64,000 nt of DNA from Minisyncoccia bacterium (GCA_039809325.1 JBDHUS010000001.1:391-64390), one strand, 5' to 3'; shown: positions 938 to 64,000, counted from the first letter of the stretch. Made by a program: numbers and translations. The notes: generated from the sequence alone by a model not told the origin.

Positions 938-1612
938 TTAAATATTATTTTTAATAATATTTAAAATAGTTTCTACTGACGACTTTGATGAATCATTACA
1001 AATGATAGGATATTCTATAGTTGATATGTCGCAATCTGTATTAGATAATGATATTACAGGAATATGTGCTATAGCTGCTTCCCTAACTGGAATTACTTCA
1101 TGTTTTGAATCAATAACTACAATAGCTCCAGGTAAAGAGGTTAATCCTGTTAAACCGCCAAAATTTTTATCTAATTTTTCTAATTCTCTTTGCATTAAAA
1201 GTTGTTCTTTTTTTGTAAATTTTACCCACTCTCCTCTGTCTTTAGCATCAATCATATTTTGTAATTTTTCTACTCTTTTTTTAATTTGAGGAAAATTTGT
1301 AATAGATCCACCAATAAATCTATTAACTATATATGGCTCCCCTAAAGATAAAGCTATTTCTTTTACAGATTGAATAATCTCTGGTTTTTCACCAATAAAA
1401 ATAATTCTCTTTTTTTGCTCTCTTAATGATTTCAAGAAAGAAACTGCTTCTTTAATTTGATTTTTAGTTTGTTCAAGATCAATAATATCTACACCATTTT
1501 GAGTAGTATAAATTGATTTTTTGGTAGAAGGATGACGTCTAGTCTTTTGATAGCCATATCCTACACCAGCTTTTGCTAAATCTTCTATTTTGATATTTTC
1601 TATATCTGCCAT
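938..1612 (-). CDS. rpsB: 30S ribosomal protein S2
   Basis: 224 aa with uS2 signatures (GVGYGYQKTRRHPS, IIDLEQT, KRIIFIG). Confidence 0.95.
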   Translation of the reverse strand: MADIENIKIEDLAKAGVGYGYQKTRRHPSTKKSIYTTQNGVDIIDLEQTKNQIKEAVSFLKSLREQKKRIIFIGEKPEIIQSVKEIALSLGEPYIVNRFIGGSITNFPQIKKRVEKLQNMIDAKDRGEWVKFTKKEQLLMQRELEKLDKNFGGLTGLTSLPGAIVVIDSKHEVIPVREAAIAHIPVISLSNTDCDISTIEYPIICNDSSKSSVETILNIIKNNI

Positions 1613-7648: not shown

Positions 7649-8680
7649 TTAAGGATTAGGACAATCTTTAACCACTATTCCTGTAAAAGTTGTTTTCTGC
7701 CCTGTTTGTACTACTAAAGCCTCCCATGTTTCTTTACCAACTTCTCCATCTACACCCAATCCATTTACTTTTTGAAAATTTTTAACAAAAGCAGCATCAG
7801 CTTCATCATATGTTGTACTAAAAGTATAATTACTTGGCATACAATTATGCTTTTTTAATAAATTCTCAAGTAAGGTAAAAGCTTTTTTATCTGGTGAAGC
7901 ACCTGCTTCTAATGTAGACTTTGCTCCTATTTTAATAACTGGATATAAGTCTTTATTATCAAATACATTTTCTCTTTTTACTCCTCCAGCATCATTTTGT
8001 ATAGGACTATTTTTAGGTCTACATTGCCCTACTTCACCTTTTTTTAATGAAGCGCCTCCAGGACCTAAACAATATAATCCTGAAACACATTGTGATTTTT
8101 CTCCTTCTTGTACAACACAAGTCTCACCAGTTTTTTTAGTATTAAGAAAATCATCTTCATTACCCAAAACATTTTTTTCAGGTTTTTTCTCACCACTACC
8201 AGTACCCCCTCCACTACCTGTATTTAATGTTGCAAATCTTACAGGTTCAATAACTATTTCATTCCCTTTTATTTGAAGTAGCCCTTGTGCTAATTTTATA
8301 ATTCCCCAAACGGAAACCATAACAAAAAGAGAAATAAGTCCCCACATCATAAATTCTTTTCCTTTTTTTAATTCATTACCATCTTTTCCTTGAGCTCTAT
8401 CGTAAATAAATTTTGCAAGCCCATAAAAAAATATAACAAATGCTGCAGTCATTAAAAGAGTGCTCGCACTAGTTAATACATTATTAGTAATATTGTTTGC
8501 TACTTCTTTAAAGCTTTGACTTGCTGTGTATGCATTATCTTGTGCGAAAACTAAATTTAAATTCAAAAGAAAAATAAAAAGAAAAATAGAAATTGATTTT
8601 ATTTTTATTTTTATATTATTTATTTTCATATTTTTATTTATTAAACTTTGATTTAAAATTATTAAGGTAATATTACACAT
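7649..8680 (-). CDS. secreted protein with a pilin-like two-helix module, a Cys-rich region and a C-terminal peptidoglycan-binding-like (PG_binding_1) motif
   Basis: Signal peptide, then TM1/TM2 (FFYGLAKFIYDRAQGKDG...FMMWGLISLFVMVSVWGIIKL). The C-terminal DEADAAFVKNFQKVNGLGVDGEVGKETWEAL resembles PG_binding_1. Confidence 0.5.
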   Translation of the reverse strand: MCNITLIILNQSLINKNMKINNIKIKIKSISIFLFIFLLNLNLVFAQDNAYTASQSFKEVANNITNNVLTSASTLLMTAAFVIFFYGLAKFIYDRAQGKDGNELKKGKEFMMWGLISLFVMVSVWGIIKLAQGLLQIKGNEIVIEPVRFATLNTGSGGGTGSGEKKPEKNVLGNEDDFLNTKKTGETCVVQEGEKSQCVSGLYCLGPGGASLKKGEVGQCRPKNSPIQNDAGGVKRENVFDNKDLYPVIKIGAKSTLEAGASPDKKAFTLLENLLKKHNCMPSNYTFSTTYDEADAAFVKNFQKVNGLGVDGEVGKETWEALVVQTGQKTTFTGIVVKDCPNP

Positions 8681-23212: not shown

Positions 23213-23656
23213 ATGTCTCTTATAGAAAATAAAAAATTACATCTAGATTATGAAATAAAAGAAAGATTTGAAGCTGGAATTGAGCTTCTTGGAAATGAGG
23301 TAAAAGCAATCAGAAATAATAAAGCACAAATCACAGGAGCAAAAATTATAATTCGTGGCGGCGAAGCTTTTATTGTTGGAATGAATGTTTCCCCTTATCA
23401 AGCAAATAGTAAAGAATACAAATCTAAAAATACAGATAAAAATGATAGGACAAGAAAATTACTTATGAAAAAATCGGAAATTTTAAAACTTACTACTGAA
23501 TCTGAAAAAGGATTATCTATACTCCCTATTAAAATTTACGATTCTCACGGACTTTTAAAATTAGAAATTGGATTAACTAAGAGGAAAAATAAAGTAGACA
23601 AAAGAGAAACCATAAAATTAAAAGATTTTAAGAGAGAGGAGAAGAGATTTATATAA
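23213..23656 (+). CDS. smpB: SsrA-binding protein
   Basis: 147 aa with LDYEIKERFEAGIELLGNEVKAIR...GGEAFIVGMNVSPYQ. Confidence 0.9.
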   Translation: MSLIENKKLHLDYEIKERFEAGIELLGNEVKAIRNNKAQITGAKIIIRGGEAFIVGMNVSPYQANSKEYKSKNTDKNDRTRKLLMKKSEILKLTTESEKGLSILPIKIYDSHGLLKLEIGLTKRKNKVDKRETIKLKDFKREEKRFI

Positions 23657-23703: not shown

Positions 23704-25077
23704 TTATTCCACAAAAGTAAATGCTTTTCCTAATTTTCCACCCCTCCCTGTTCTCCCAATCCTATGAATATAATCTTCATAAGTAGAAGGTAAATCATAA
23801 TTTATAACATGAGAAACATTTGGTACATCAAGTCCTCTTGCTGCCACATCTGTCGCAATAAGAATCTTTGCTTTATTGTCTTTAAAACTTTTTAAAGCAA
23901 AATTTCTCTCTCTTGGTCTTTTATCTCCATGAATAGCAATAGCATTATGTCCAAGAATTTTTAAATGTTTTTCTATTCTATCAACTCCTATCTTAGTCTC
24001 TCCAAAGATAATAACTTTTTCAAAATCATCACCCAAAAGTAAATCATGAAGTATATTTATTTTATTTTTTCCATTTAGATAAACCACATCTTGCTCTATT
24101 GTCGCTGCTGTATCTCTTGTCTTCACTTCTACAAATACTGGATTTACAAGAAATTCTTTTATTATTTTATTAACACTAGGATTAGTTGTAGCTGAAAAGA
24201 ATAATGTCTGATGAGGCTTTGACATTTCATTCATTAGGAATTTCATATCATCCACAAATCCCATATCTAGCATTCTATCTGACTCATCAAGTACTATAGT
24301 TTTAAATTCTTTTATATTTAAAACCCCTCTATTTATTAGATCTTTTAACCTCCCAGGAGTACCTATTACAAAATTATGCTCATATTTAAAATCTTTTATT
24401 TGATTATAAATTGGCATACCGCCAACAGCAGAAATACTCCAAAGTTTTAATCCTTTTGTAAACTTTTTAAATTCATTATCAATTTGAACTGCCAGCTCTC
24501 TTGTTGGCGCGAGTATTATGACCATTTCTTTTTTATTTTTTAAAACTTTGTCTATAAGAGGCAGTAAAAATGCTGCTGTCTTTCCAGTACCAGTATTTGC
24601 AATACCAACCATATCTCGTCCATCTAAAATATTATTTATAGATTTATCTTGTATAAGAGTAGGTGTGGTATAGCCACTTTCTAAAATATTTTTCTTTAAT
24701 CTTTCATCAATTTTTAAATTTTCAAAAGTATTTTCTGGAATATATACTTCCTCTACTTCTTTAATTTCTTTTGCATTTGATTTGTTGATAAATTTTGTGA
24801 TGTCATTAAAAACAGACCTTTTCTTTCCACCTCTTCTTCCAGCAAACCTATTTCTTCCTCCGATTCTACTTCCTCCACCAAAATTATTTCTTGAGCAATA
24901 TCTTGAAAAATTTCTTTCTCTTTTTCCTTCTTTATTATTATCTGTTTTTTTTCCACCATTATTTTTAAAATTATTTTTAGAAGAAAAATTATTTTTTCTT
25001 TCAGCGCTACCTCCTCTACGCACACTATTATTAGATGATCTTGAATGATCATTTCTATTATTTGATTTTTTTAACAT
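23704..25077 (-). CDS. DEAD-box ATP-dependent RNA helicase with an N-terminal RGG/Asn-rich tail
   Basis: Q-motif, GTGKT, DESD (DEAD variant) and ILIATDVAARGLD; about 100 aa of N-terminal R/G/N-rich low complexity. Confidence 0.85.
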   Translation of the reverse strand: MLKKSNNRNDHSRSSNNSVRRGGSAERKNNFSSKNNFKNNGGKKTDNNKEGKRERNFSRYCSRNNFGGGSRIGGRNRFAGRRGGKKRSVFNDITKFINKSNAKEIKEVEEVYIPENTFENLKIDERLKKNILESGYTTPTLIQDKSINNILDGRDMVGIANTGTGKTAAFLLPLIDKVLKNKKEMVIILAPTRELAVQIDNEFKKFTKGLKLWSISAVGGMPIYNQIKDFKYEHNFVIGTPGRLKDLINRGVLNIKEFKTIVLDESDRMLDMGFVDDMKFLMNEMSKPHQTLFFSATTNPSVNKIIKEFLVNPVFVEVKTRDTAATIEQDVVYLNGKNKINILHDLLLGDDFEKVIIFGETKIGVDRIEKHLKILGHNAIAIHGDKRPRERNFALKSFKDNKAKILIATDVAARGLDVPNVSHVINYDLPSTYEDYIHRIGRTGRGGKLGKAFTFVE

Positions 25078-25275
25078 ATTTATTTGAAGTCCTATTATTT
25101 CTAAATCTAAGCCGGACTTCTGATCTCCTACTTTCTATTTAGATCATAAATAAATTATGTTTTTAGTTTCTGTATTATCAGGAAACTCAGAATAAAGAGA
25201 TTAACTTATAAATTCATTATAATATAATTTATACCCCTTGTCAAATAATATTATTTACACATTTCTTAATCTACT

Positions 25276-25307
25276 ATTGACTATGTTAAGAATAGTGTGC
25301 TATAATA
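25276..25307 (+). promoter_or_regulatory. sigma70-like promoter (TTGACT-18-TATAAT) for ssrA
   Basis: TATAAT at 25302-25307 lies 7 nt upstream of the GGGAGTG 5' end. Confidence 0.5.
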
Positions 25308-25314
25308 AATATAT

Positions 25315-25701
25315 GGGAGTGTCAGGATTCGACACATAATTCTTTGTAAATGTGGTTTCCGATAATGAAAATATATCGTTAAATCTTTTCAAAATATGTT
25401 GCAAACAAAACTGCAAAAGCTGTGCCTTCTCCTTTCGGATGGGCATTCGCTCCGGTAGCCGCTTAATTAAGCCGCTTTGGTGCTGACCTTTATTTACATA
25501 TCGTAAAGAGCTCGGCAATATAAAGAATATGTGTAGAAAATTTTAAGTTAGCTTTCTCTAAAATTTTTGAAAAATAAAAAGCTAAGCGGAGCTATTTTGT
25601 TTATTTAATAAGCTTCGACGAAAATCAATAAATAAACTATGAAACTAGACTCATTTATAAAAATTATCTGCACGGGGGTTCAACTCCCCCCACTTCCACA
25701 A
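25315..25701 (+). ncRNA. ssrA: tmRNA (SsrA); CCA not encoded
   Basis: - The 5' end GGGAGTGTCAGGATTCGACAC resembles GGGGCUGAUUCUGGAUUCGAC.
- The 3' end CGGGGGTTCAACTCCCCCCACTTCCAC-A forms a T-arm plus an acceptor strand that pairs with the 5' GGGAGUG.
- The tag ORF ends ...GWAFAPVAA-TAA (25464-25466) followed by TTAA. Confidence 0.7.
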
Positions 25702-25852
25702 AAATAATGGAGAAAAAGCAATGCTTTTTTGTAGTATATTTTTTGAGATGTGGAGGAAGTTGAACTGAGTCGCCTGCGAAGCCACGAGCAAAACGAGTGA
25801 GGCGGCGAAGCGGGGTCGAGAAACAAGGAGCAAAGCGACTATGTTTGGTGAC

Positions 25853-25876
25853 CAACTCCCCCCACTTCCACAAAAA
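25853..25876 (+). repeat. exact 24-nt direct repeat of the ssrA 3' end (CAACTCCCCCCACTTCCACAAAAA); att-like
   Basis: Identical to 25681-25704 and 172 bp downstream. The intervening segment is GC-rich with partial inverted similarity. Confidence 0.7.
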
Positions 25877-25922
25877 ATATAATATGCTATAATATTATTA
25901 TAATTTATAAAATATAGACACA

Positions 25923-26210
25923 ATGAATAATACAATAAATACAACAGCTTTAACTTCTGATATAAATAATTTTATTTATGCATCTGGAATAAGTTTAATT
26001 ATTCTTGTTTTAGTTATTATTTTAATCTGGAGCTCGATATGGAAAGGTATTGCTTTATGGAAGGCTGCAAAAAATGGTTCAAAATTTTGGTTTATACTTT
26101 TATTTATAATCAACACACTTGGCATTCTTGAAATACTCTATATATATGTTTTTTCTAAAAAAACTAAATTAAAAAATAAGAATAACGCTACAGCTCTTAA
26201 TCATAATTAA
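25923..26210 (+). CDS. hypothetical two-TM membrane protein
   Basis: 95 aa with two hydrophobic helices. Confidence 0.3.
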   Translation: MNNTINTTALTSDINNFIYASGISLIILVLVIILIWSSIWKGIALWKAAKNGSKFWFILLFIINTLGILEILYIYVFSKKTKLKNKNNATALNHN

Positions 26211-26220
26211 TAAAAACCAA

Positions 26221-26778
26221 ATGAATAAACCTACTTTTAGTTCTAAAAATTTTCAAAAGAAAAATTTAAATAAAGCGAGTATTAATAATCAAATACGCGC
26301 TCTTGAGATGCGCGTTATAGACGAAAAGGGTAAAAATCTTGGAGTAATAAGTAAAGAGGAGGCTCTTTCTCTTGCCAAAAATGCTGGATTAGACTTGATA
26401 GAAATTTCTTCGAGTGTAAATCCACCTATTTGCAAAATAGCAGATTATGGTAAACATACATATGACATGAGTAAAAAGAAAAAAGAAGTAAAAAGTAAAC
26501 AAATAATAAGTGAAACAAAAAATATACAAATTAGCGTAGAGATTAGTGATAATGATATTTTAATAAAAAGTAAAAGAGCTGCCGAATGGCTTAAAGAAGG
26601 TCATAGGGTAAAGATAGATTTACAATTAAAAGGTAGAACAAAATATATGGAAGATACTTTTCTAAGATCAAGAATGGATAGAATTCTAGCTATAATCCCT
26701 TGTGAGTATAAAGTAGCTGAACCGGTTAAAAAAGTAGGCAATAAATCATTTATCACAATACTTGAAAAAGTTAAATAA
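26221..26778 (+). CDS. infC: translation initiation factor IF-3
   Basis: IF3_N/IF3_C pattern (RVIDEKGKNLGVISKEEALSLAKNAGLDLIEIS...PPICKIADYGK); infC-rpmI-rplT operon. Confidence 0.9.
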   Translation: MNKPTFSSKNFQKKNLNKASINNQIRALEMRVIDEKGKNLGVISKEEALSLAKNAGLDLIEISSSVNPPICKIADYGKHTYDMSKKKKEVKSKQIISETKNIQISVEISDNDILIKSKRAAEWLKEGHRVKIDLQLKGRTKYMEDTFLRSRMDRILAIIPCEYKVAEPVKKVGNKSFITILEKVK

Positions 26779-55892: not shown

Positions 55893-57206
55893 ATGCAAAA
55901 TAAAAATAAAGACCAAAAATTATCTTGGTCAATCACAACAAAAAATGTTTCTCAATTATTAGGCGCATCATACAACCCTCGTAAGATGTCAGAGAGTGAG
56001 AGAAGAGATCTAGAAGATTCTATTAAGAACTTTGGAACAGTAGTTCCTATAGTTCTAAATATTGGAAGTAGAGAGAATATATTAATTGGAGGTCATGCCA
56101 GAATTTCTATTTACGCCGATCTTGGTATAGAAGAAATTGAATGTATGATCCCCTCTCGTGAGTTAGATGAAAATGAAGAAAAAGAACTCAACCTGAGACT
56201 TAATAAAAATACAGGATCTTGGGATGAAGAACTTTTGAAAGCATTTGATCTCAATATGCTTCTAGAAGTAGGTTTTGGAGATGAAGAATTACAAAATATA
56301 TTTGATGATATAGATTTAGCAGAAGATGACTTTGATTTAGAGAAAGCTATTAAAGCTACCCATATTGATAAAGTAAAAGATGGGGAAATTTATGAGCTCG
56401 GAGAAAATAGATTACTCGTAGGAGATAGTACAGATGAAGTTAAAGTTAAAGAATTAATGCAAGAAGATAAAGCAGATATAGTTTGGATGGATCCAAACTA
56501 TGGTATAGGTTTAGATTACAATAAAGGTTTAGGTGGAAAATCTAACTATGGTGGAACTCTATCTAGTAAAGATGATTCCAAACCAGAAACAGAATACTCT
56601 CAATTTATTAATAAGAGTATGGAAGTTGCTAAAAAGTTTGTTAAAGATAACAGTCACTGGTTCTATTGGTCAGATCCAAATAGTATAGGATTAATCCAAA
56701 GTTTGTATGATAAGAATAAGATAGAAAAAAGAAGAGTCTGCCTTTGGATAAAATCTAACCAGAACTGTACTCCGAAAATTGCATGGAACAGACTCTATGA
56801 ACCGTGTATATATAGCACTATTGGGAAACCCTACCTAAATAATAATTTCAGAAATGCTAATGAGATATTTAATCAAGAAGTAAGTACTGGTAATCAAGTC
56901 TTAGACGAAGCAGGAGAAATGATAGATCTCTGGCTAGTTAAACGTGATAATGTGCAGAGATATTTACATCCGACCCAGAAGCCTGTAACTCTAAACGAAA
57001 AACCCCTCAAAAGATGCTCTGCACCCGGACATATAGTCTTCTCTGGTTTTGCAGGTAGTGGTAGTGATTTAATTGCTTGCGAAACTTTGCAAAGAAAATG
57101 GCGTGGAGTAGAAAAAGATCCTATCTTTGCAACTATCATTATTGATCGATGGGAAAAGTTCACAGGTAAGACAGCAAAATTATTAACTAATAATAAATCT
57201 AACTAA
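55893..57206 (+). CDS. ParB-like nuclease domain fused to a beta-class amino (N6A/N4C) DNA methyltransferase
   Basis: N-terminal ParB/Srx motifs (YNPRKMSE...GGHAR). The MTase part has motif IV DPNY before motif I FSGFAGSGSD. Confidence 0.75.
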   Translation: MQNKNKDQKLSWSITTKNVSQLLGASYNPRKMSESERRDLEDSIKNFGTVVPIVLNIGSRENILIGGHARISIYADLGIEEIECMIPSRELDENEEKELNLRLNKNTGSWDEELLKAFDLNMLLEVGFGDEELQNIFDDIDLAEDDFDLEKAIKATHIDKVKDGEIYELGENRLLVGDSTDEVKVKELMQEDKADIVWMDPNYGIGLDYNKGLGGKSNYGGTLSSKDDSKPETEYSQFINKSMEVAKKFVKDNSHWFYWSDPNSIGLIQSLYDKNKIEKRRVCLWIKSNQNCTPKIAWNRLYEPCIYSTIGKPYLNNNFRNANEIFNQEVSTGNQVLDEAGEMIDLWLVKRDNVQRYLHPTQKPVTLNEKPLKRCSAPGHIVFSGFAGSGSDLIACETLQRKWRGVEKDPIFATIIIDRWEKFTGKTAKLLTNNKSN

Positions 57207-57210
57207 ATAT

Positions 57211-57960
57211 ATGATAGACATTAAAGTAAAAACTGGTGAGATATATAAAGTGGGAGAAAATATTATTGCTTGTGGTGATTCTCTTGATAAAGAATTTGTA
57301 GAGAAAGTTATTGGAGAGCACAAGATTAAGTGTGTACTTTGCGATCCTCCCTACGCCGTAGCTTATGGTAAAAATATAATGAATAATATTTCTAAAGATA
57401 AAGAAATATTAAATGATCATCTTCAATCTGAGGATGAATACAAAGAATTTACTAAAGGTTGGTTATCTTTAGTTCTTCCTCATCTTACCGAATACAATGC
57501 CTGCTATATATTTAATTCTGATGCAATGTATTCAGCTTTAAGATTAGCTATTAAAGAAGTAGGTCTTTATTATTCTCAAATGCTAATTTGGGTTAAAGGA
57601 CAACCGGTTATGGGTAGAAAAGATTATCTTCCTCAGTTTGAATTGATAGCTTATTCATGGTTTGGAAAACATAAGATGGAAAGGAGTAAAGCTAAAAGTG
57701 TACTCTTTTATCCTAAACCTCAATCATCTAAACTTCATCCAACAATGAAGCCTATTGGATTATTAAGAAAGATTATTCCAAACTCTACAAGATATGGAGA
57801 ATATATCTATGACCCATTCTTAGGTAGTGGATCTACTCTTATAGCCTCTACAGAACTTGGTCGAAAGTGTATTGGAATTGAGATAGAACCTGAATATGTA
57901 GAAGTCTCATTGCAGAGAATAGAGAAACTAACAGGTCTTACTAGAGTAAAGATTAATTAA
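57211..57960 (+). CDS. beta-class amino DNA methyltransferase (N6A/N4C)
   Basis: DPPY motif IV (LCDPPYA) precedes motif I (DPFLGSGST); homologous to the MTase part of the upstream gene. Confidence 0.75.
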   Translation: MIDIKVKTGEIYKVGENIIACGDSLDKEFVEKVIGEHKIKCVLCDPPYAVAYGKNIMNNISKDKEILNDHLQSEDEYKEFTKGWLSLVLPHLTEYNACYIFNSDAMYSALRLAIKEVGLYYSQMLIWVKGQPVMGRKDYLPQFELIAYSWFGKHKMERSKAKSVLFYPKPQSSKLHPTMKPIGLLRKIIPNSTRYGEYIYDPFLGSGSTLIASTELGRKCIGIEIEPEYVEVSLQRIEKLTGLTRVKIN

Positions 57961-60711: not shown

Positions 60712-61017
60712 AAATTTGTAGCGGTTTTAATTTTTAATATCTAAATGAGTCTCTCTGACAAAAGACTCTCCACCATTGCGATTCTTGTTTCCAAGAACCC
60801 ATATCCGTTTCCAGATATGACCGCTACAGTGACTCTGATGGAGAGTCTTTTATACTGTAGCGGATATTTTCTAACCATGCCTAGCAAATGCTAAGTTTAG
60901 GCTATTTGTAATAATATTTTAGCATAAATACGAGAGTATTTATAGCATTGTGTATCTTAGCTTAAATAAAGGAAAAATAATAACGTGAATGCTAAGATAA
61001 TGCTAAAAAAAGAAAAA

Positions 61018-63132
61018 CTATCCCTCCACAACTTGTCTGACTTTTTCTGCTAGTTTTTCCGAAAATTCTTTTATATTAACATTTGCTATATTATCTGAAT
61101 AAAATGTTTTAACATGCTCAGTACCTGAACCTATACCAAGCCCAATAATATGAACATCTTTTTCCTGTTCTATCTTTTTTACTATTTCTTTCAAATCATA
61201 TCCTTCATGCTGTGGAGACTCTACTGGAACACCATCAGATAGCACAAATAATATTTTCTTTTTTTCTTCTCTATTTTTTATTTTCTTATACATTTCGTCC
61301 ACAGCCCATCCATCATCATTATAATCTGCTCTACCACCACTATGATTATCAACTTCACTTAACATATCTTCTGTACCCTCTCTAAGATCATCAGTATAAT
61401 CTTCGTCAAATTCTTTATATTCATATAGTCTATCATTAAATCCTGCCACAGATAATTTAATCCCTATATTTCTAAGAGCTTCGCAAAGGACTACTACAGC
61501 CTTATAAGTTTCACTGATTTTCGTACCACTCATACTTCCAGATAAATCTACCAATATTTGAATTGCGTAGTCTTTTTCTAAAGGTAATTCTTTTTTCATA
61601 AAAACGTTTAGACTGTCTACTCCTGTGGCTTCACCTCTAATTTCTCTTTTTACGTCTATCATCATTCCACTTCTATAACCAGAATTCCAAGCGTTTCTTT
61701 TTCTCTCAATAAAAATATCTCTTAATTCATTTTCTAACTTAAATATTATGGGAGATACATCTTCAAGAACCTTTTGGTAACTATTTTGTCCATTATATTT
61801 TTCTCTATCAAAATCTTTTTTAGCTTTTTCAATAGCTTCCTTTAAAGCTTGTCTCATTTTATCTCTTCTTTCTCTCTCATTATCTTTTGAGTAATCTTTT
61901 TCTTCTCTTTGAGATTTATCATCTTTGGATTTTTCTTCCGAATCACTACTTGTTTCTTTCTCTTTTTGTAGTTCAGCTTTAGATTCTAAGTATTCATTCA
62001 TCTCTTTCTCTATTTCTCTAATTATTTGATCTGCTTTTTCTTTTATTTCTTGATCAGACATTTTAGAAGGATTGGATTTATTATCTTGAATATCTGGATC
62101 ACTTAGAGTAGAGTTTACATCTTGTTGTGAATTTTCATTTTGTTTATTAGATTTTTCTCCATCCATATTATCAGGTCTTTGTTCTTCTTCAGTCTTATTA
62201 GAATTATCTTTAGTTTCACCTTCTTTACTTTGTGGTTTCCGATTATCTTTTTCACCCTCTCCAGAATTTTGCTCTTTATTTACTTCTTGATTTTTATTTT
62301 CACTTTTTTGATTATCATCTTGTCTTATTTTATCTTCTGTGTCCTTTGTATCTGAATCAACTAAAGTTTTAAAAACAGGCCAGACTTCTTCTAGATTTAT
62401 TTTATATGACTCTCTAGCATACTCTTGTACGACTTGCTCTCCATCTAATTTTTCTCCATTTAACAGCATACCTTTCTCTACCTCTTTTCTAAGTGGATAA
62501 GTTAGCCAACTTCTTCTTGCAGAACTAAGAGTTTTTTCTACCACTTCTATTACTTCCTTTGGAAGTTCTTTGTCTATTTCTATCTTTTCTCCTTTTGTCT
62601 CAGCAATCCATTGCTTTATGTATTCAAGTCCTGCTTGCATGAATCTGGGGACTCTTCCAACTTTTTGTTTTGCTTTTTCTTTCATTTTTCTTTCAAATTC
62701 AGCATCGAGATCATACGAAAATATCATCTCTTGCTTAAACTTTGGTACATTGTCGGCGACATAGTTATTCATCCTAGGATCTTCTATTGCATTCATCATA
62801 GAAGAAAACCCTGGTTGATTCCATATTTCATCTGGAATGATACCTATAACCCTAGAAATTTTTCTATGTCCAGCTTCATGTTGAATAACAAAACGTAGAT
62901 AATCAATTGGTTTTTCCAATAAATCTTTTGCGTCACACCTCACAATATTATTCTTAAAATCCCAATGCCAACCTTGACCCTCATTAACCTCTACCTTCAT
63001 ACTTACATCAGTTGCTACCATTCTACAAAGTGGAGTCAACAAAGATAATCTTTGTTTTATTATTTTTCTGTCTTCATAATTAAAATTATCAAGAATACTG
63101 TGTTTTTTACCAAAAGATTCTAATCTGTCCAT
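61018..63132 (-). CDS. vWA-domain protein with an N-terminal HExxH (DUF2201_N-like) domain and a long acidic low-complexity linker
   Basis: HEAGHRK; roughly 250 aa rich in E/K/D/S/N; C-terminal MIDAS motif ILVDLSGSMSG ... VLSDG. Confidence 0.6.
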   Translation of the reverse strand: MDRLESFGKKHSILDNFNYEDRKIIKQRLSLLTPLCRMVATDVSMKVEVNEGQGWHWDFKNNIVRCDAKDLLEKPIDYLRFVIQHEAGHRKISRVIGIIPDEIWNQPGFSSMMNAIEDPRMNNYVADNVPKFKQEMIFSYDLDAEFERKMKEKAKQKVGRVPRFMQAGLEYIKQWIAETKGEKIEIDKELPKEVIEVVEKTLSSARRSWLTYPLRKEVEKGMLLNGEKLDGEQVVQEYARESYKINLEEVWPVFKTLVDSDTKDTEDKIRQDDNQKSENKNQEVNKEQNSGEGEKDNRKPQSKEGETKDNSNKTEEEQRPDNMDGEKSNKQNENSQQDVNSTLSDPDIQDNKSNPSKMSDQEIKEKADQIIREIEKEMNEYLESKAELQKEKETSSDSEEKSKDDKSQREEKDYSKDNERERRDKMRQALKEAIEKAKKDFDREKYNGQNSYQKVLEDVSPIIFKLENELRDIFIERKRNAWNSGYRSGMMIDVKREIRGEATGVDSLNVFMKKELPLEKDYAIQILVDLSGSMSGTKISETYKAVVVLCEALRNIGIKLSVAGFNDRLYEYKEFDEDYTDDLREGTEDMLSEVDNHSGGRADYNDDGWAVDEMYKKIKNREEKKKILFVLSDGVPVESPQHEGYDLKEIVKKIEQEKDVHIIGLGIGSGTEHVKTFYSDNIANVNIKEFSEKLAEKVRQVVEG

Positions 63133-63164
63133 ATTAGCTTGATTATAACATACTAACCATAATC

Positions 63165-64000
63165 TTATTCTAGATAAATAGATCTTTTAATTTTATAACA
63201 ATTGCCCCATTTTAAAAGACCTTTATATGAATTTTTATTATTTTCATTTAGGTTTTTTACCATCTTTATTTTTGTTGTCTTTCTTAGGATTCTGTATTTT
63301 GGGAAATTTATAAAACCTAGAAAATCCATTCCACTATAGACTGTCCTAATAATTTCCTTATGTACTACCAAGTGTAAATGTTCAAGACAAAATGTTTTTA
63401 ATATATATCTAAATTCTTCTGCTTCTTGAAGAGAATCAAAAAAACATACTATATCATCTGCATACCTAATATAATATTTAATTTTACAAATATGTTTAGA
63501 GAAGAAGTCCAACTCATTTAAATAAACATTTATAAATAATTGGGAAGTTAGATTTCCTAAGGCCAGTCCTTTTTCTTGGCTAAATATTATCTCCCTACAT
63601 AAATTGATAATATCTTTGTCAGAAATATATTTTGATAATATCTTAATTAAAATATCTTGATCTATACTCTGGAAACACTTTTTTATATCAAACTTCAAAA
63701 CCCAAGCTTGCTTTGTATAATTCAGAGTTATCTCTCTAGAAAATTTTTCATATCTAAGTATAGCTTTATGTGTACCTTTAAATTTCCTAGAACTATAGGA
63801 ATCATAAATAAATCTTTTATCAAAATAATCGTATAAGAAATTATATACCAATTTGTGAACTATTCTGTCTATAACAGTAGCTTTATTAATCAATCGAGTT
63901 TTTGTATCGACTATTTTAAAATTTGTATAAGGCCCATGTTTATATGAATTATTTTTCAAATCTTTAAATATATCAAATAATTGATCACCAGATTTAAAAT
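63165..64000 (-). CDS. diversity-generating retroelement (DGR)-type reverse transcriptase; 5' end beyond the window
   Basis: - YKHGPYTNFKIVDTKTRLI ... IDRIVH ... DSYSSRKFKGTHKA (RT motifs 1-2).
- KGLALGNLTSQLFINVYLNELD, the (I/L)GxxxSQ signature.
- YADD catalytic motif.
- The frame stays open upstream of the TTG at 63959 through to position 64000. Confidence 0.8.
   Translation of the reverse strand, partial: FKSGDQLFDIFKDLKNNSYKHGPYTNFKIVDTKTRLINKATVIDRIVHKLVYNFLYDYFDKRFIYDSYSSRKFKGTHKAILRYEKFSREITLNYTKQAWVLKFDIKKCFQSIDQDILIKILSKYISDKDIINLCREIIFSQEKGLALGNLTSQLFINVYLNELDFFSKHICKIKYYIRYADDIVCFFDSLQEAEEFRYILKTFCLEHLHLVVHKEIIRTVYSGMDFLGFINFPKYRILRKTTKIKMVKNLNENNKNSYKGLLKWGNCYKIKRSIYLE

Follow-up and report, generated by a model that had tools for sequence, protein, structure and literature searches.

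What separates the tmRNA gene ssrA from an exact second copy of its own 3' end in this DNA, and how did the intervening segment come to lie there? Integration into ssrA with duplication of the gene's 3' end is a textbook event. The Patescibacteria, to our knowledge, have tiny genomes and few described mobile elements. We examined the locus within a stretch of 64,000 nt (hereafter the window). An earlier note on this DNA had read the repeat as an att duplication left by an ssrA-integrating element, the intervening DNA being either a decayed remnant or a mini-insertion.

The ssrA Gene and the Duplication of Its 3' End

The GC fraction of the AT-rich window is 0.21-0.36 in every 1-kb bin, and the nearest database relatives of its genes come from Patescibacteria (CPR) MAGs labelled Nomurabacteria, Parcubacteria or Paceibacterota. 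Gene order around ssrA is ftsH (-), smpB (+), a DEAD-box helicase gene (-), ssrA (+), a DUF5652 gene (+), infC, rpmI and rplT. ARAGORN called an intact one-piece tmRNA gene on the plus strand at 25315-25699, with the tag AKAVPSPFGWAFAPVAA and its stop, and the Rfam model RF00023 matched 25315-25701 over its full length (model positions 1-374) with 105.7 bits against a gathering score of 47. These searches, the second of which the earlier note had proposed, set the gene at 25315-25701 and bear out its recognition from tRNA-like ends and a tag frame. A consensus scan placed a promoter-like site (TTGACT, an 18-nt spacer and a TG-extended TATAAT; 11 of 12 matches, with the TG) at 25277-25306 on the same strand, ending 8 nt ahead of the tmRNA 5' end. 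The smpB gene lies at 23213-23656 (Pfam SmpB, 5e-39), 1.66 kb from ssrA, in line with the roughly 1.6 kb given before. Across the clade, the 3' 60 nt of ssrA are almost invariant.

The duplication is as the note had described it. The 24-mer CAACTCCCCCCACTTCCACAAAAA occurs on the plus strand at 25681-25704 and again at 25853-25876, with 100% identity and a spacing of 172; it has no further match in the 64 kb when 3 mismatches are allowed, and none of 100 shuffles gave a match. It starts inside the T-loop (GGGGGTT/CAACT, the slash marking the junction here and below) and ends 5 nt beyond the last tmRNA base. The left, attL-like copy holds the functional T-loop, the 3' T-stem and the acceptor 3' strand of the tmRNA, followed by AAAAA. 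An assembly artefact was ruled out, since an independently made ENA assembly (L001) agrees at every base of 25315-25922, a span that takes in the whole intergenic region; a Logan contig (L002) also matches at 100% up to its end inside the insert.

Between the copies lie 148 bp, whose core (25746-25871) has a GC fraction of 0.56 against the 0.21-0.36 of the 1-kb bins, so that the spacer is indeed GC-rich, as first noticed. Reading along the plus strand, the insert opens with a terminator-like hairpin (AAAAAGC-AAT-GCTTTTT, 25713-25729; sequence reading and folds), which forms the tip of a long palindrome. An inverted ("anti") copy of the ssrA 3' end, GTGGAGGAAGTTGAAC, follows at 25750-25765, where the earlier note had seen a degenerate inverted copy; it was recovered by repeat search, and in predicted folds it can pair with either repeat copy. 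It forms the end of a 40-nt imperfect palindrome (25678-25717 with 25726-25765, 73% complementary) that involves the ssrA 3' end. Two folded arms, P2 and P3, make up the remainder, and the last base of P3 is the first base of the right repeat copy. The final conserved block of the insert, TGGTGAC-CAACTCCCC, abuts the displaced original end of ssrA.

Empty Sites in Related Genomes

Related contigs were fetched using the helicase and the DUF5652 protein as anchors. The most informative is L040 (Logan, SRR10839918). It encodes the same tag peptide, and its alignments to the window show 98.5% identity on the left (1,497 nt) and 99.6% on the right (474 nt). By blastn, positions 1-1496 of this contig correspond to 24209-25704 of the window and positions 1473-1946 to 25853-26324, and the two blocks overlap by exactly the 24-nt repeat. 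Past the second copy, the window (AAAAAATATAATATGCTATAAT...; from 25877 on, ATATAATATGCTATAAT...) continues as the empty-site flank of L040, with resemblance to the flanks of L012 and L008. The 172-bp segment (25705-25876, plus strand; 25681-25852 is an equally valid placement) is therefore a strain-level presence/absence polymorphism, with limits set by the repeat. The filled left junction reads CCACAAAAA/TAATGGAG, and in the empty site CCACAAAAAATATAAT stands directly after ssrA.

Single-copy empty sites were found not only in L040 but also in L006, L008, L011, L012-15, L016, L020/21, L044/45 and L047. In these relatives the second copy is absent, and ssrA is followed by the downstream -10 box, either directly or after an AT-rich stretch of up to about 200 nt. 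The window carries this TG-extended -10 box, TGCTATAAT, at 25885-25893 (+), outside the insert; from its sequence and its recurrence directly after ssrA in empty-site relatives, we read it as the putative promoter of the downstream DUF5652-infC-rpmI-rplT genes.

The right, attR-like copy thus appears to be the ancestral junction, a displaced ssrA end still joined to the ancestral flank, as the repeat search and the L040 alignment suggest. Since the flank past it is that of the empty site, the 172 bp were either inserted here or precisely lost elsewhere; for the two near-identical strains, this means a gain by the window lineage or an exact loss from L040. The comparison of ssrA 3' flanks that the earlier note had called for thus yields a single-copy site in a near-identical strain and in further relatives, and of its two options the mini-insertion fits.

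A Conserved Fold in the Spacer

A GTDB scan yielded a homologous insert after ssrA in L007 (CAZWMQ010000001). Its parts follow the same order as in the window: an A-rich tract (AAAATAATG), a terminator-like hairpin of differing sequence, a strand rich in G and A that complements the ssrA end, and finally the GC-rich core with TGGTGACCAACTCCCC as its end. For the window and L007 cores, RNAalifold predicted 26 pairs, none of them broken and 4 compensatory. A hand-refined structure holds 32 pairs, 100% standard in both sequences, with 5 changed on both sides. When the partners were slid by 1-3 columns as a control, 30-50% paired and none was compensatory. With two or three sequences only, the statistics are limited, and a shuffle control equalled the observed values in 17 of 500 trials.

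The core has two arms, both described here for the plus strand. Arm P2 (25765-25810) consists of a helix with tandem G.A pairs, a GCGAAGC mini-hairpin (25776-25782) and a terminal hairpin (25783-25799); its 15 pairs are kept in both the window and L007, 4 of them with both sides changed. Arm P3 (25814-25853) consists of GGTCG...TGACC, an A/U-rich inner helix and a loop containing AAGGAG. All 12 of its pairs are kept, one through a compensatory change (A-U to C-G), and the arm is near-identical in L007 and in a third variant, L041. By hand count, 13 substitutions separate the window and L007 cores: 10 fall in five compensatory pairs, one switches between G.U and G-C, and two lie at unpaired positions. 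All 13 are compatible with the fold, which argues for purifying selection and not decay. In place of the tip hairpin, L007 and L041 have hairpins of different sequence, and for this tip RNAalifold gives pairs that are kept although both sides have changed. At the position of the anti-copy, these two variants hold different G/A-rich sequences that are likewise complementary to the ssrA end.

Tandem G.A/A.G pairs occur in two helices, and G.U pairs are also present; in the modelled structure, such pairs would make sense only on the ssrA-sense strand. For L007, folding of the sense strand is stronger (-48.1 kcal/mol, z -3.6) than that of the antisense strand (-32.5 kcal/mol, z -0.5). The window copy folds without strand asymmetry.

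We also considered known RNA families and coding potential. Rfam 15, run in E-value mode on the window, L007 and L041 variants, gave only noise-level matches for the GC-rich core, and no intron model matched 25650-25950 at E up to 10. A group I intron in the tmRNA T-loop was ruled out, with no intron family match and with ssrA contiguous and complete upstream of the insert. A protein-coding spacer was also ruled out for want of a conserved ORF. The minus-strand ORFs (69 and 97 aa) are not conserved because of a 5-nt indel in L007. A plus-strand frame through P2 has period-3, synonymous-looking substitutions but meets an early stop in L007. Finally, an AAGGAG+ATG mini-ORF in P3 would give unrelated peptides, its frame being set by a variable C-run (L041 compared with L042).

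Taken together, the comparisons suggest that the spacer is a conserved, structured module and not the product of random decay. The idea of a decayed element thus fares poorly, given the structure, the compensatory changes and the occurrence of the module at the same site in two other lineages.

Homologous Modules and Their Probable Movement

We built a covariance model from the window and L007 cores. It recovered L007 with 157.8 bits and the Logan contigs L041-43 with 63-67 bits, all at the same site after ssrA. It found one copy in the 64-kb window, where the next best match reached 11.3 bits (E 0.12); among the loci searched in relatives, the module was found nowhere besides the ssrA site. 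Three carrier lineages were thus found (the window, L007 and L041-43), each with one copy per locus. The variant in L041-43 has lost arm P2 through a clean 35-nt deletion and has its own, different tip hairpin.

Outside the swapped hairpin and this deletion, the L007 and L041 modules are about 96% identical by hand count, and their similarity extends to unpaired AT-rich stretches (TATAAAATAATGAA; TGATTTATTTTATTGGGAGAGG). By comparison, infC is 71.8% identical between the two hosts. The left flank of L041, TATAAAATAATGAA, equals that of L007, and its right flank equals the empty-site flank of L047 for 52 nt. The repeat is intact in the window (24 of 24) and decayed in the other two: the right copy of L041 is imperfect (CAACCCCCCCCTTCCAC), and that of L007 retains CAACTCCCC, followed by a 10-nt insertion and a degenerate remainder.

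The distribution of the module is patchy: in the helicase tree, the carrier L007 has L011 as its sister and the window falls with L016, and both of these relatives have empty sites. Every carrier has a closer empty-site relative, by helicase or infC/IF3 identity. These closer empty relatives, the three states of repeat decay and a similarity between modules that exceeds that between hosts point the same way, namely that the module would move, or at least be exchanged, as a small unit and is probably not a vertically inherited scar. The earlier note had held that an att duplication would be excluded if relatives carried both copies with a conserved spacer, as expected of a structural part of the tmRNA or a terminator. 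In L007 and L041 the spacer is indeed conserved, yet their second copies are degenerate, and the closer empty relative of each carrier speaks against a fixed structural part of the tmRNA.

The Junction at the T-Loop

In the T-loop of its ssrA, L007 has a host-specific G (TTCGACT; an A in all relatives), whereas the element-type CAACT is found in its right copy. GGTGAC/CAAC is the common end of the three modules. This combination suggests that host sequence gives way to element sequence within ACTCCCC, in the T-loop and 3' T-stem. With the boundary there, the functional tmRNA of carriers would take its last 19 nt, together with its terminator-like hairpin, from the insert. Att repeats of tyrosine recombinases measure 8-60 bp (PMC5704250), a range that includes the 24-nt repeat found here, and the T-loop is a classical sublocation of integrase crossover (PMC3146451). 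A hypothetical excised circle would have the junction GTTTGGTGAC/CAACTCCCCCCACTTCCACAAAAA/TAATGGAG, and an attP-like sequence would read TGGTGACCAACTCCCCCCACTTCCAC.

The ssrA end is also used by other elements in the clade. Starting with the final 9 nt of ssrA, contig L046 agrees with L047 at 99.97% of positions; the DNA upstream of that point is foreign and encodes a MerR-type HTH protein and a protein that matches several PHROG families. Its junction differs (CACTTCCAC only), and its end is without apparent similarity to the module.

Judged as an integrase-mediated island at a t(m)RNA gene, the locus has a direct repeat that starts at TT/CAACT of the T-loop and has empty sites in L040 and other relatives; no integrase gene was found next to the att site or among the 30 window ORFs scanned. 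In anatomy and in its empty sites, the locus agrees with an att duplication at ssrA, and we consider that part of the earlier proposal essentially right, while its alternative of a decayed remnant does not fit.

Possible Origins of the Insert

Given the patterns above, we rank first the reading that the 172 bp are a non-autonomous, ORF-less mini-element at the ssrA att site, mobilised in trans by a site-specific recombinase, and we give it about an even chance, with recombination by no dedicated enzyme as its main rival. The insert would carry a replacement for the last 19 nt of the tmRNA and a short A-rich tail, so that the tmRNA would stay intact, along with the terminator-like hairpin, the inverted ssrA-end copy and the GC-rich two-arm folded core. 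The unit would move by recombination of its CAACTCCCC end with the identical T-loop/T-stem segment of ssrA, the most likely agent being a tyrosine-type site-specific recombinase acting in trans from an unseen parent element. Such an element would resemble a cis-mobilizable element cut down to little beyond its att arms, and the conserved fold would be recombination arms or a small RNA carried by the element.

Several results stand against mobilisation in trans, first of all that neither recombinase, parent element nor attP-like junction was found. A Pfam scan of 30 window ORFs revealed no integrase, and the insert itself lacks a conserved ORF; no recombinase gene was found in or beside it. IMG/VR yielded 0 matches to the core and 0 to the ssrA end, and neither a parent element nor an attP-like junction; all 15 of its matches to TGGTGACCAACTCCCC come from unrelated contigs (44-66% GC) in which the upstream core is missing. 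BLAST searches of GenBank phages and PLSDB plasmids returned nothing relevant and no parent element, and in JGI metagenome contigs the pattern GCGAAGCGGGGTCN{20,50}GGTGACCAAC gave two chance matches in GC-rich, apparently coding sequence. Moreover, the module occurs once per locus and in three carrier lineages only, and att function at the DNA level has no obvious need of G.U pairs, tandem G.A pairs or compensatory changes.

A further difficulty lies within ssrA itself. Aligned with L040, the window shows a patch of about 20 differences at 25573-25637 (plus strand), in the second-to-last stem-loop of the Rfam tmRNA alignment. The rest of the comparison shows 2 substitutions in 1.5 kb on the left, both within 869 nt of the helicase gene and none in the intergenic region or the first ~258 nt of ssrA, and one 2-nt indel in 0.47 kb on the right. 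Between patch and insert there are no differences. The patch beside the insert looks like a recombination tract, and such a cluster fits homologous recombination with a diverged donor and not a clean site-specific crossover.

This evidence favours the main rival, in which a small structured-RNA locus would pass among strains and species by ordinary recombination after DNA uptake, with no dedicated recombinase. The body of ssrA would be the left homology anchor and CAACTCCCC(CCACTTCCAC) the right (micro)homology, as in homology-facilitated illegitimate recombination; the direct repeat would arise automatically from such an event. A tract imported from inside ssrA through the insert would account for the patch, the near-invariant 3' 60 nt of ssrA would make a good anchor, and the right junction is always GGTGAC/CAAC. 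The lack of an integrase among the window ORFs scanned also agrees with this explanation, and L007, which has no proper right repeat, could be a source-like locus. On the other hand, 9-24 nt is very short for a homologous crossover, the same exact right junction recurs in all three events, and the repeat starts at the T-loop crossover sublocation (PMC3146451). The patch could also be an unrelated event, with either the window or L040 as the recombinant; in the closest relative by helicase (L018), consulted to decide between the two, ssrA does not adjoin the helicase gene. We regard ordinary recombination as a possible but rather unlikely origin.

We think it improbable that the insert is a passive scar, that is, a kb-scale prophage or island at ssrA reduced to its att arms, vertically inherited and repeatedly lost by slippage. 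The larger element at ssrA in L046 would be a precedent in the clade, and precise loss would be easy between 24-nt repeats 148 bp apart. The "empty" flank of L011 (TATAAAATAG-TTATATTTTATT) is similar to the left-hand portion of the module in L007 and could itself be a partial scar. Against such a history, the L007 and L041 modules agree at ~96%, unpaired AT-rich parts included, compared with 72% for infC. The repeat, intact in the window and decayed in L007 and L041, implies different ages, and the 13 of 13 window-L007 core substitutions that fit the fold would not be expected of a scar.

We assign a similarly low probability to a new kind of ORF-less mobile element of 150-190 nt, almost wholly self-paired as a unit-length circle or strand, with a conserved folded RNA or ssDNA core and a built-in imitation of the T-loop and acceptor end of tmRNA. 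The structure of the element would itself direct it to the T-loop of ssrA, by way of an RNA/ssDNA intermediate or a hijacked host enzyme, with no conventional element-encoded integrase.

The conserved fold with its compensatory changes could instead reflect a host-beneficial RNA, a 3' trailer or sRNA co-transcribed with tmRNA, whose alternative pairings would affect tmRNA 3' folding or processing, termination, or expression of DUF5652-infC-rpmI-rplT. The G.U and tandem G.A pairs favour the ssrA-sense strand, the L007 sense fold is stronger than the antisense, the anti-copy can pair with either repeat copy, and all three variants are complementary to the ssrA end despite their differing sequences. 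Yet the module is missing from a near-identical strain and from most relatives that have the same ssrA and downstream promoter. It is located past a terminator-like hairpin and ahead of the downstream promoter, and a promoter scan found none of its own. Arm P2 is dispensable in L041, and the window copy folds without strand asymmetry. A benefit to the host is thus very improbable as the explanation.

Least credible of all is a rearrangement of ssrA, whether part of the gene was duplicated in tandem or the locus is on its way to a permuted two-piece tmRNA with the anti-copy as a second acceptor 5' strand: all three variants do match RF04321 (tmRNA_permuted; 19.7, 26.8 and 22.3 bits), in an alignment that puts GGGGUUG as the acceptor 5' strand after the intervening loop, but these scores lie below the gathering score of 47, derive mostly from the genuine T-arm and extend only over roughly model positions 34-105 out of 213, ssrA is complete and in one piece, the local score of spacer against the rest of ssrA (26) is equalled by 52 of 500 shuffles, and the presence/absence polymorphism fits an insertion better. 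A decayed partial ssrA duplicate was likewise ruled out, as this alignment is no better than the shuffles and the sequences directly ahead of the two copies show no similarity.

Comparison With Known Systems

With the trans-mobilised mini-element as the leading reading, we compared the insert with described systems. Its resemblance to an integron attC site (an 88-nt palindrome, GTTCAAC...GTTGAAC) is by eye only; GTTCAAC is the T-loop consensus, and the window holds no cassette array or integrase. Permuted tmRNA (RF04321) shares the acceptor 3' strand, an intervening hairpin and a complementary G-rich strand. It differs in that here the scores are sub-threshold, ssrA is in one piece, and the extra strand lies in a strain-variable insert.

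AT-rich genomes harbour MITEs and small palindromic elements, for example Rickettsia palindromic elements and mitochondrial GC clusters. Like these, the insert is small, ORF-less, self-complementary, GC-rich in an AT-rich genome and strain-variable. Unlike them, it is single-copy and site-specific, with a 24-nt gene-derived repeat instead of a short target duplication, and the repeat search lists no inverted pair joining the insert ends. For the DNA examined, a multi-copy MITE was ruled out by this lack of terminal inverted repeats, the 24-nt gene duplication and the single copy found with the covariance model.

Cis-mobilizable elements (CIMEs) are decayed ICEs or IMEs and hence, as far as is known, kb-scale. 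They are described as att-flanked elements without recombination and transfer genes (PMC5704250), and the insert resembles them in having attL/attR-like repeats in a gene's 3' end, both retained, with recombination and transfer genes missing, such that a helper in trans would be needed. It differs in its size (150-190 bp), in keeping the same compact form in three lineages, and in having no known cognate autonomous element; none with the same att specificity was found in IMG/VR, phages, plasmids or JGI contigs.

Islands and prophages at the 3' end of ssrA share with our locus a repeat that starts in the T-loop, an intact gene on the left, a displaced fragment on the right and empty relatives. 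In Dehalococcoides islands, a 15-bp conserved element motif lies right upstream of the right repeat, the position taken here by TGGTGAC. Such islands differ in being kb-scale, whereas the present insert has 172 bp, no integrase, cargo or ORF, and an interior that is a conserved folded module.

What sets the locus apart from the compared ssrA elements, which are kb-scale and have or once had their own recombinase, is a gene-less structured module of 150-190 bp that varies between near-identical strains and appears to move between Patescibacteria species. If it is mobilised in trans, it points to an unseen ssrA-specific recombinase system in the phylum and would be a minimal natural att substrate; if its fold acts as RNA, it would be a small structured RNA of a new type, one that brings its insertion site along. 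Either way, the tmRNA of carriers would owe its last 19 nt to the element, and the recombination patch next to the insert suggests that ssrA is a hotspot of exchange in these genomes. In architecture the locus matches an ssrA-integrated island reduced to its att arms, for which the closest named concept is the cis-mobilizable element.

Sequence Features of the Insertion and ssrA

Two signals resembling those of coding sequence were observed in the core of the ORF-less insertion at the 3' end of ssrA. Where the window and the homologous module of the relative L007 differ in arm P2, the substitutions of its 5' half (window 25769-25794; alignment A3, columns 25-49) are spaced at a period of three. 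They would be synonymous in a single reading frame, whichever strand is read, and every one of them is compensated by its pairing partner. No ORF is conserved, and the period of three may be a coincidence. Arm P3 (25824-25848) carries a Shine-Dalgarno-like AAGGAG with an ATG 10 nt further on, and both are kept in all three variants of the module (those of the window, L007 and L041). The peptides predicted after this ATG are unrelated among the variants, their frame being set by a variable run of C.

Immediately upstream of the insertion, within ssrA itself, about 20 differences from L040, a near-identical strain with an empty ssrA site, are packed into a single tmRNA stem-loop (25573-25637), while the two are otherwise 99+% identical. 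The Rfam alignment places this stem-loop as the second-to-last of the tmRNA, and both strands of its helix vary among the genomes whose sequences were aligned. The stretch looks like a recombination patch within ssrA.

Other Genes of the Window

A reverse transcriptase (63165-63959, minus strand; Pfam RVT_1, 6.8e-21) had a generic reverse transcriptase model as its top PADLOC match, and group II and Drt families scored below threshold. Next on that strand comes a CobT_C/VWA protein of 704 aa (61018-63132), and after it a LOOT RNA (60780-60903, minus strand; Rfam RF03000, 83.8 bits). Together, this reverse transcriptase, protein and structured RNA (60780-63959) form a cluster. Elsewhere in the window, two N6/N4 DNA methylase genes stand next to each other at 55893-57206 and 57211-57960, and the protein encoded at 7649-8680 has both T4SS-pilin and peptidoglycan-binding domains.

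ssrA Loci of Related Genomes

The 'empty' site of the relative L011 lies directly after ssrA (~1420-1475, minus strand) and reads CCAC-TATAAAATAG-TTATATTTTATT. This sequence is similar to the base of the long hairpin in the L007/L041 module (TATAAAATAATGAA...TGATTTATTTTATT), and is either a partial scar of that module or the host flank that gave the L007/L041 subfamily its left arm. In L018 (1-670), the contig bearing the closest relative of the helicase adjoining ssrA in the window (P0002, 86% aa), the 165 nt upstream of the helicase are conserved. Past them, a protein-coding gene stands where ssrA would be, and thus ssrA has moved or the locus has been rearranged.

The contig L046 (GCA_964398405.1, CAYNMJ010000001.1; 1-2960 compared) is 99.97% identical to the empty-site contig L047 starting at the final 9 nt of ssrA (CACTTCCAC). 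Upstream of the shared CACTTCCAC, L047 has ssrA, whereas L046 has foreign DNA encoding a MerR-HTH protein and a protein with matches to phrog_13160 and other PHROG families. What L046 carries here is probably one end, attR, of a larger prophage or island that sits at ssrA but has a different crossover point.
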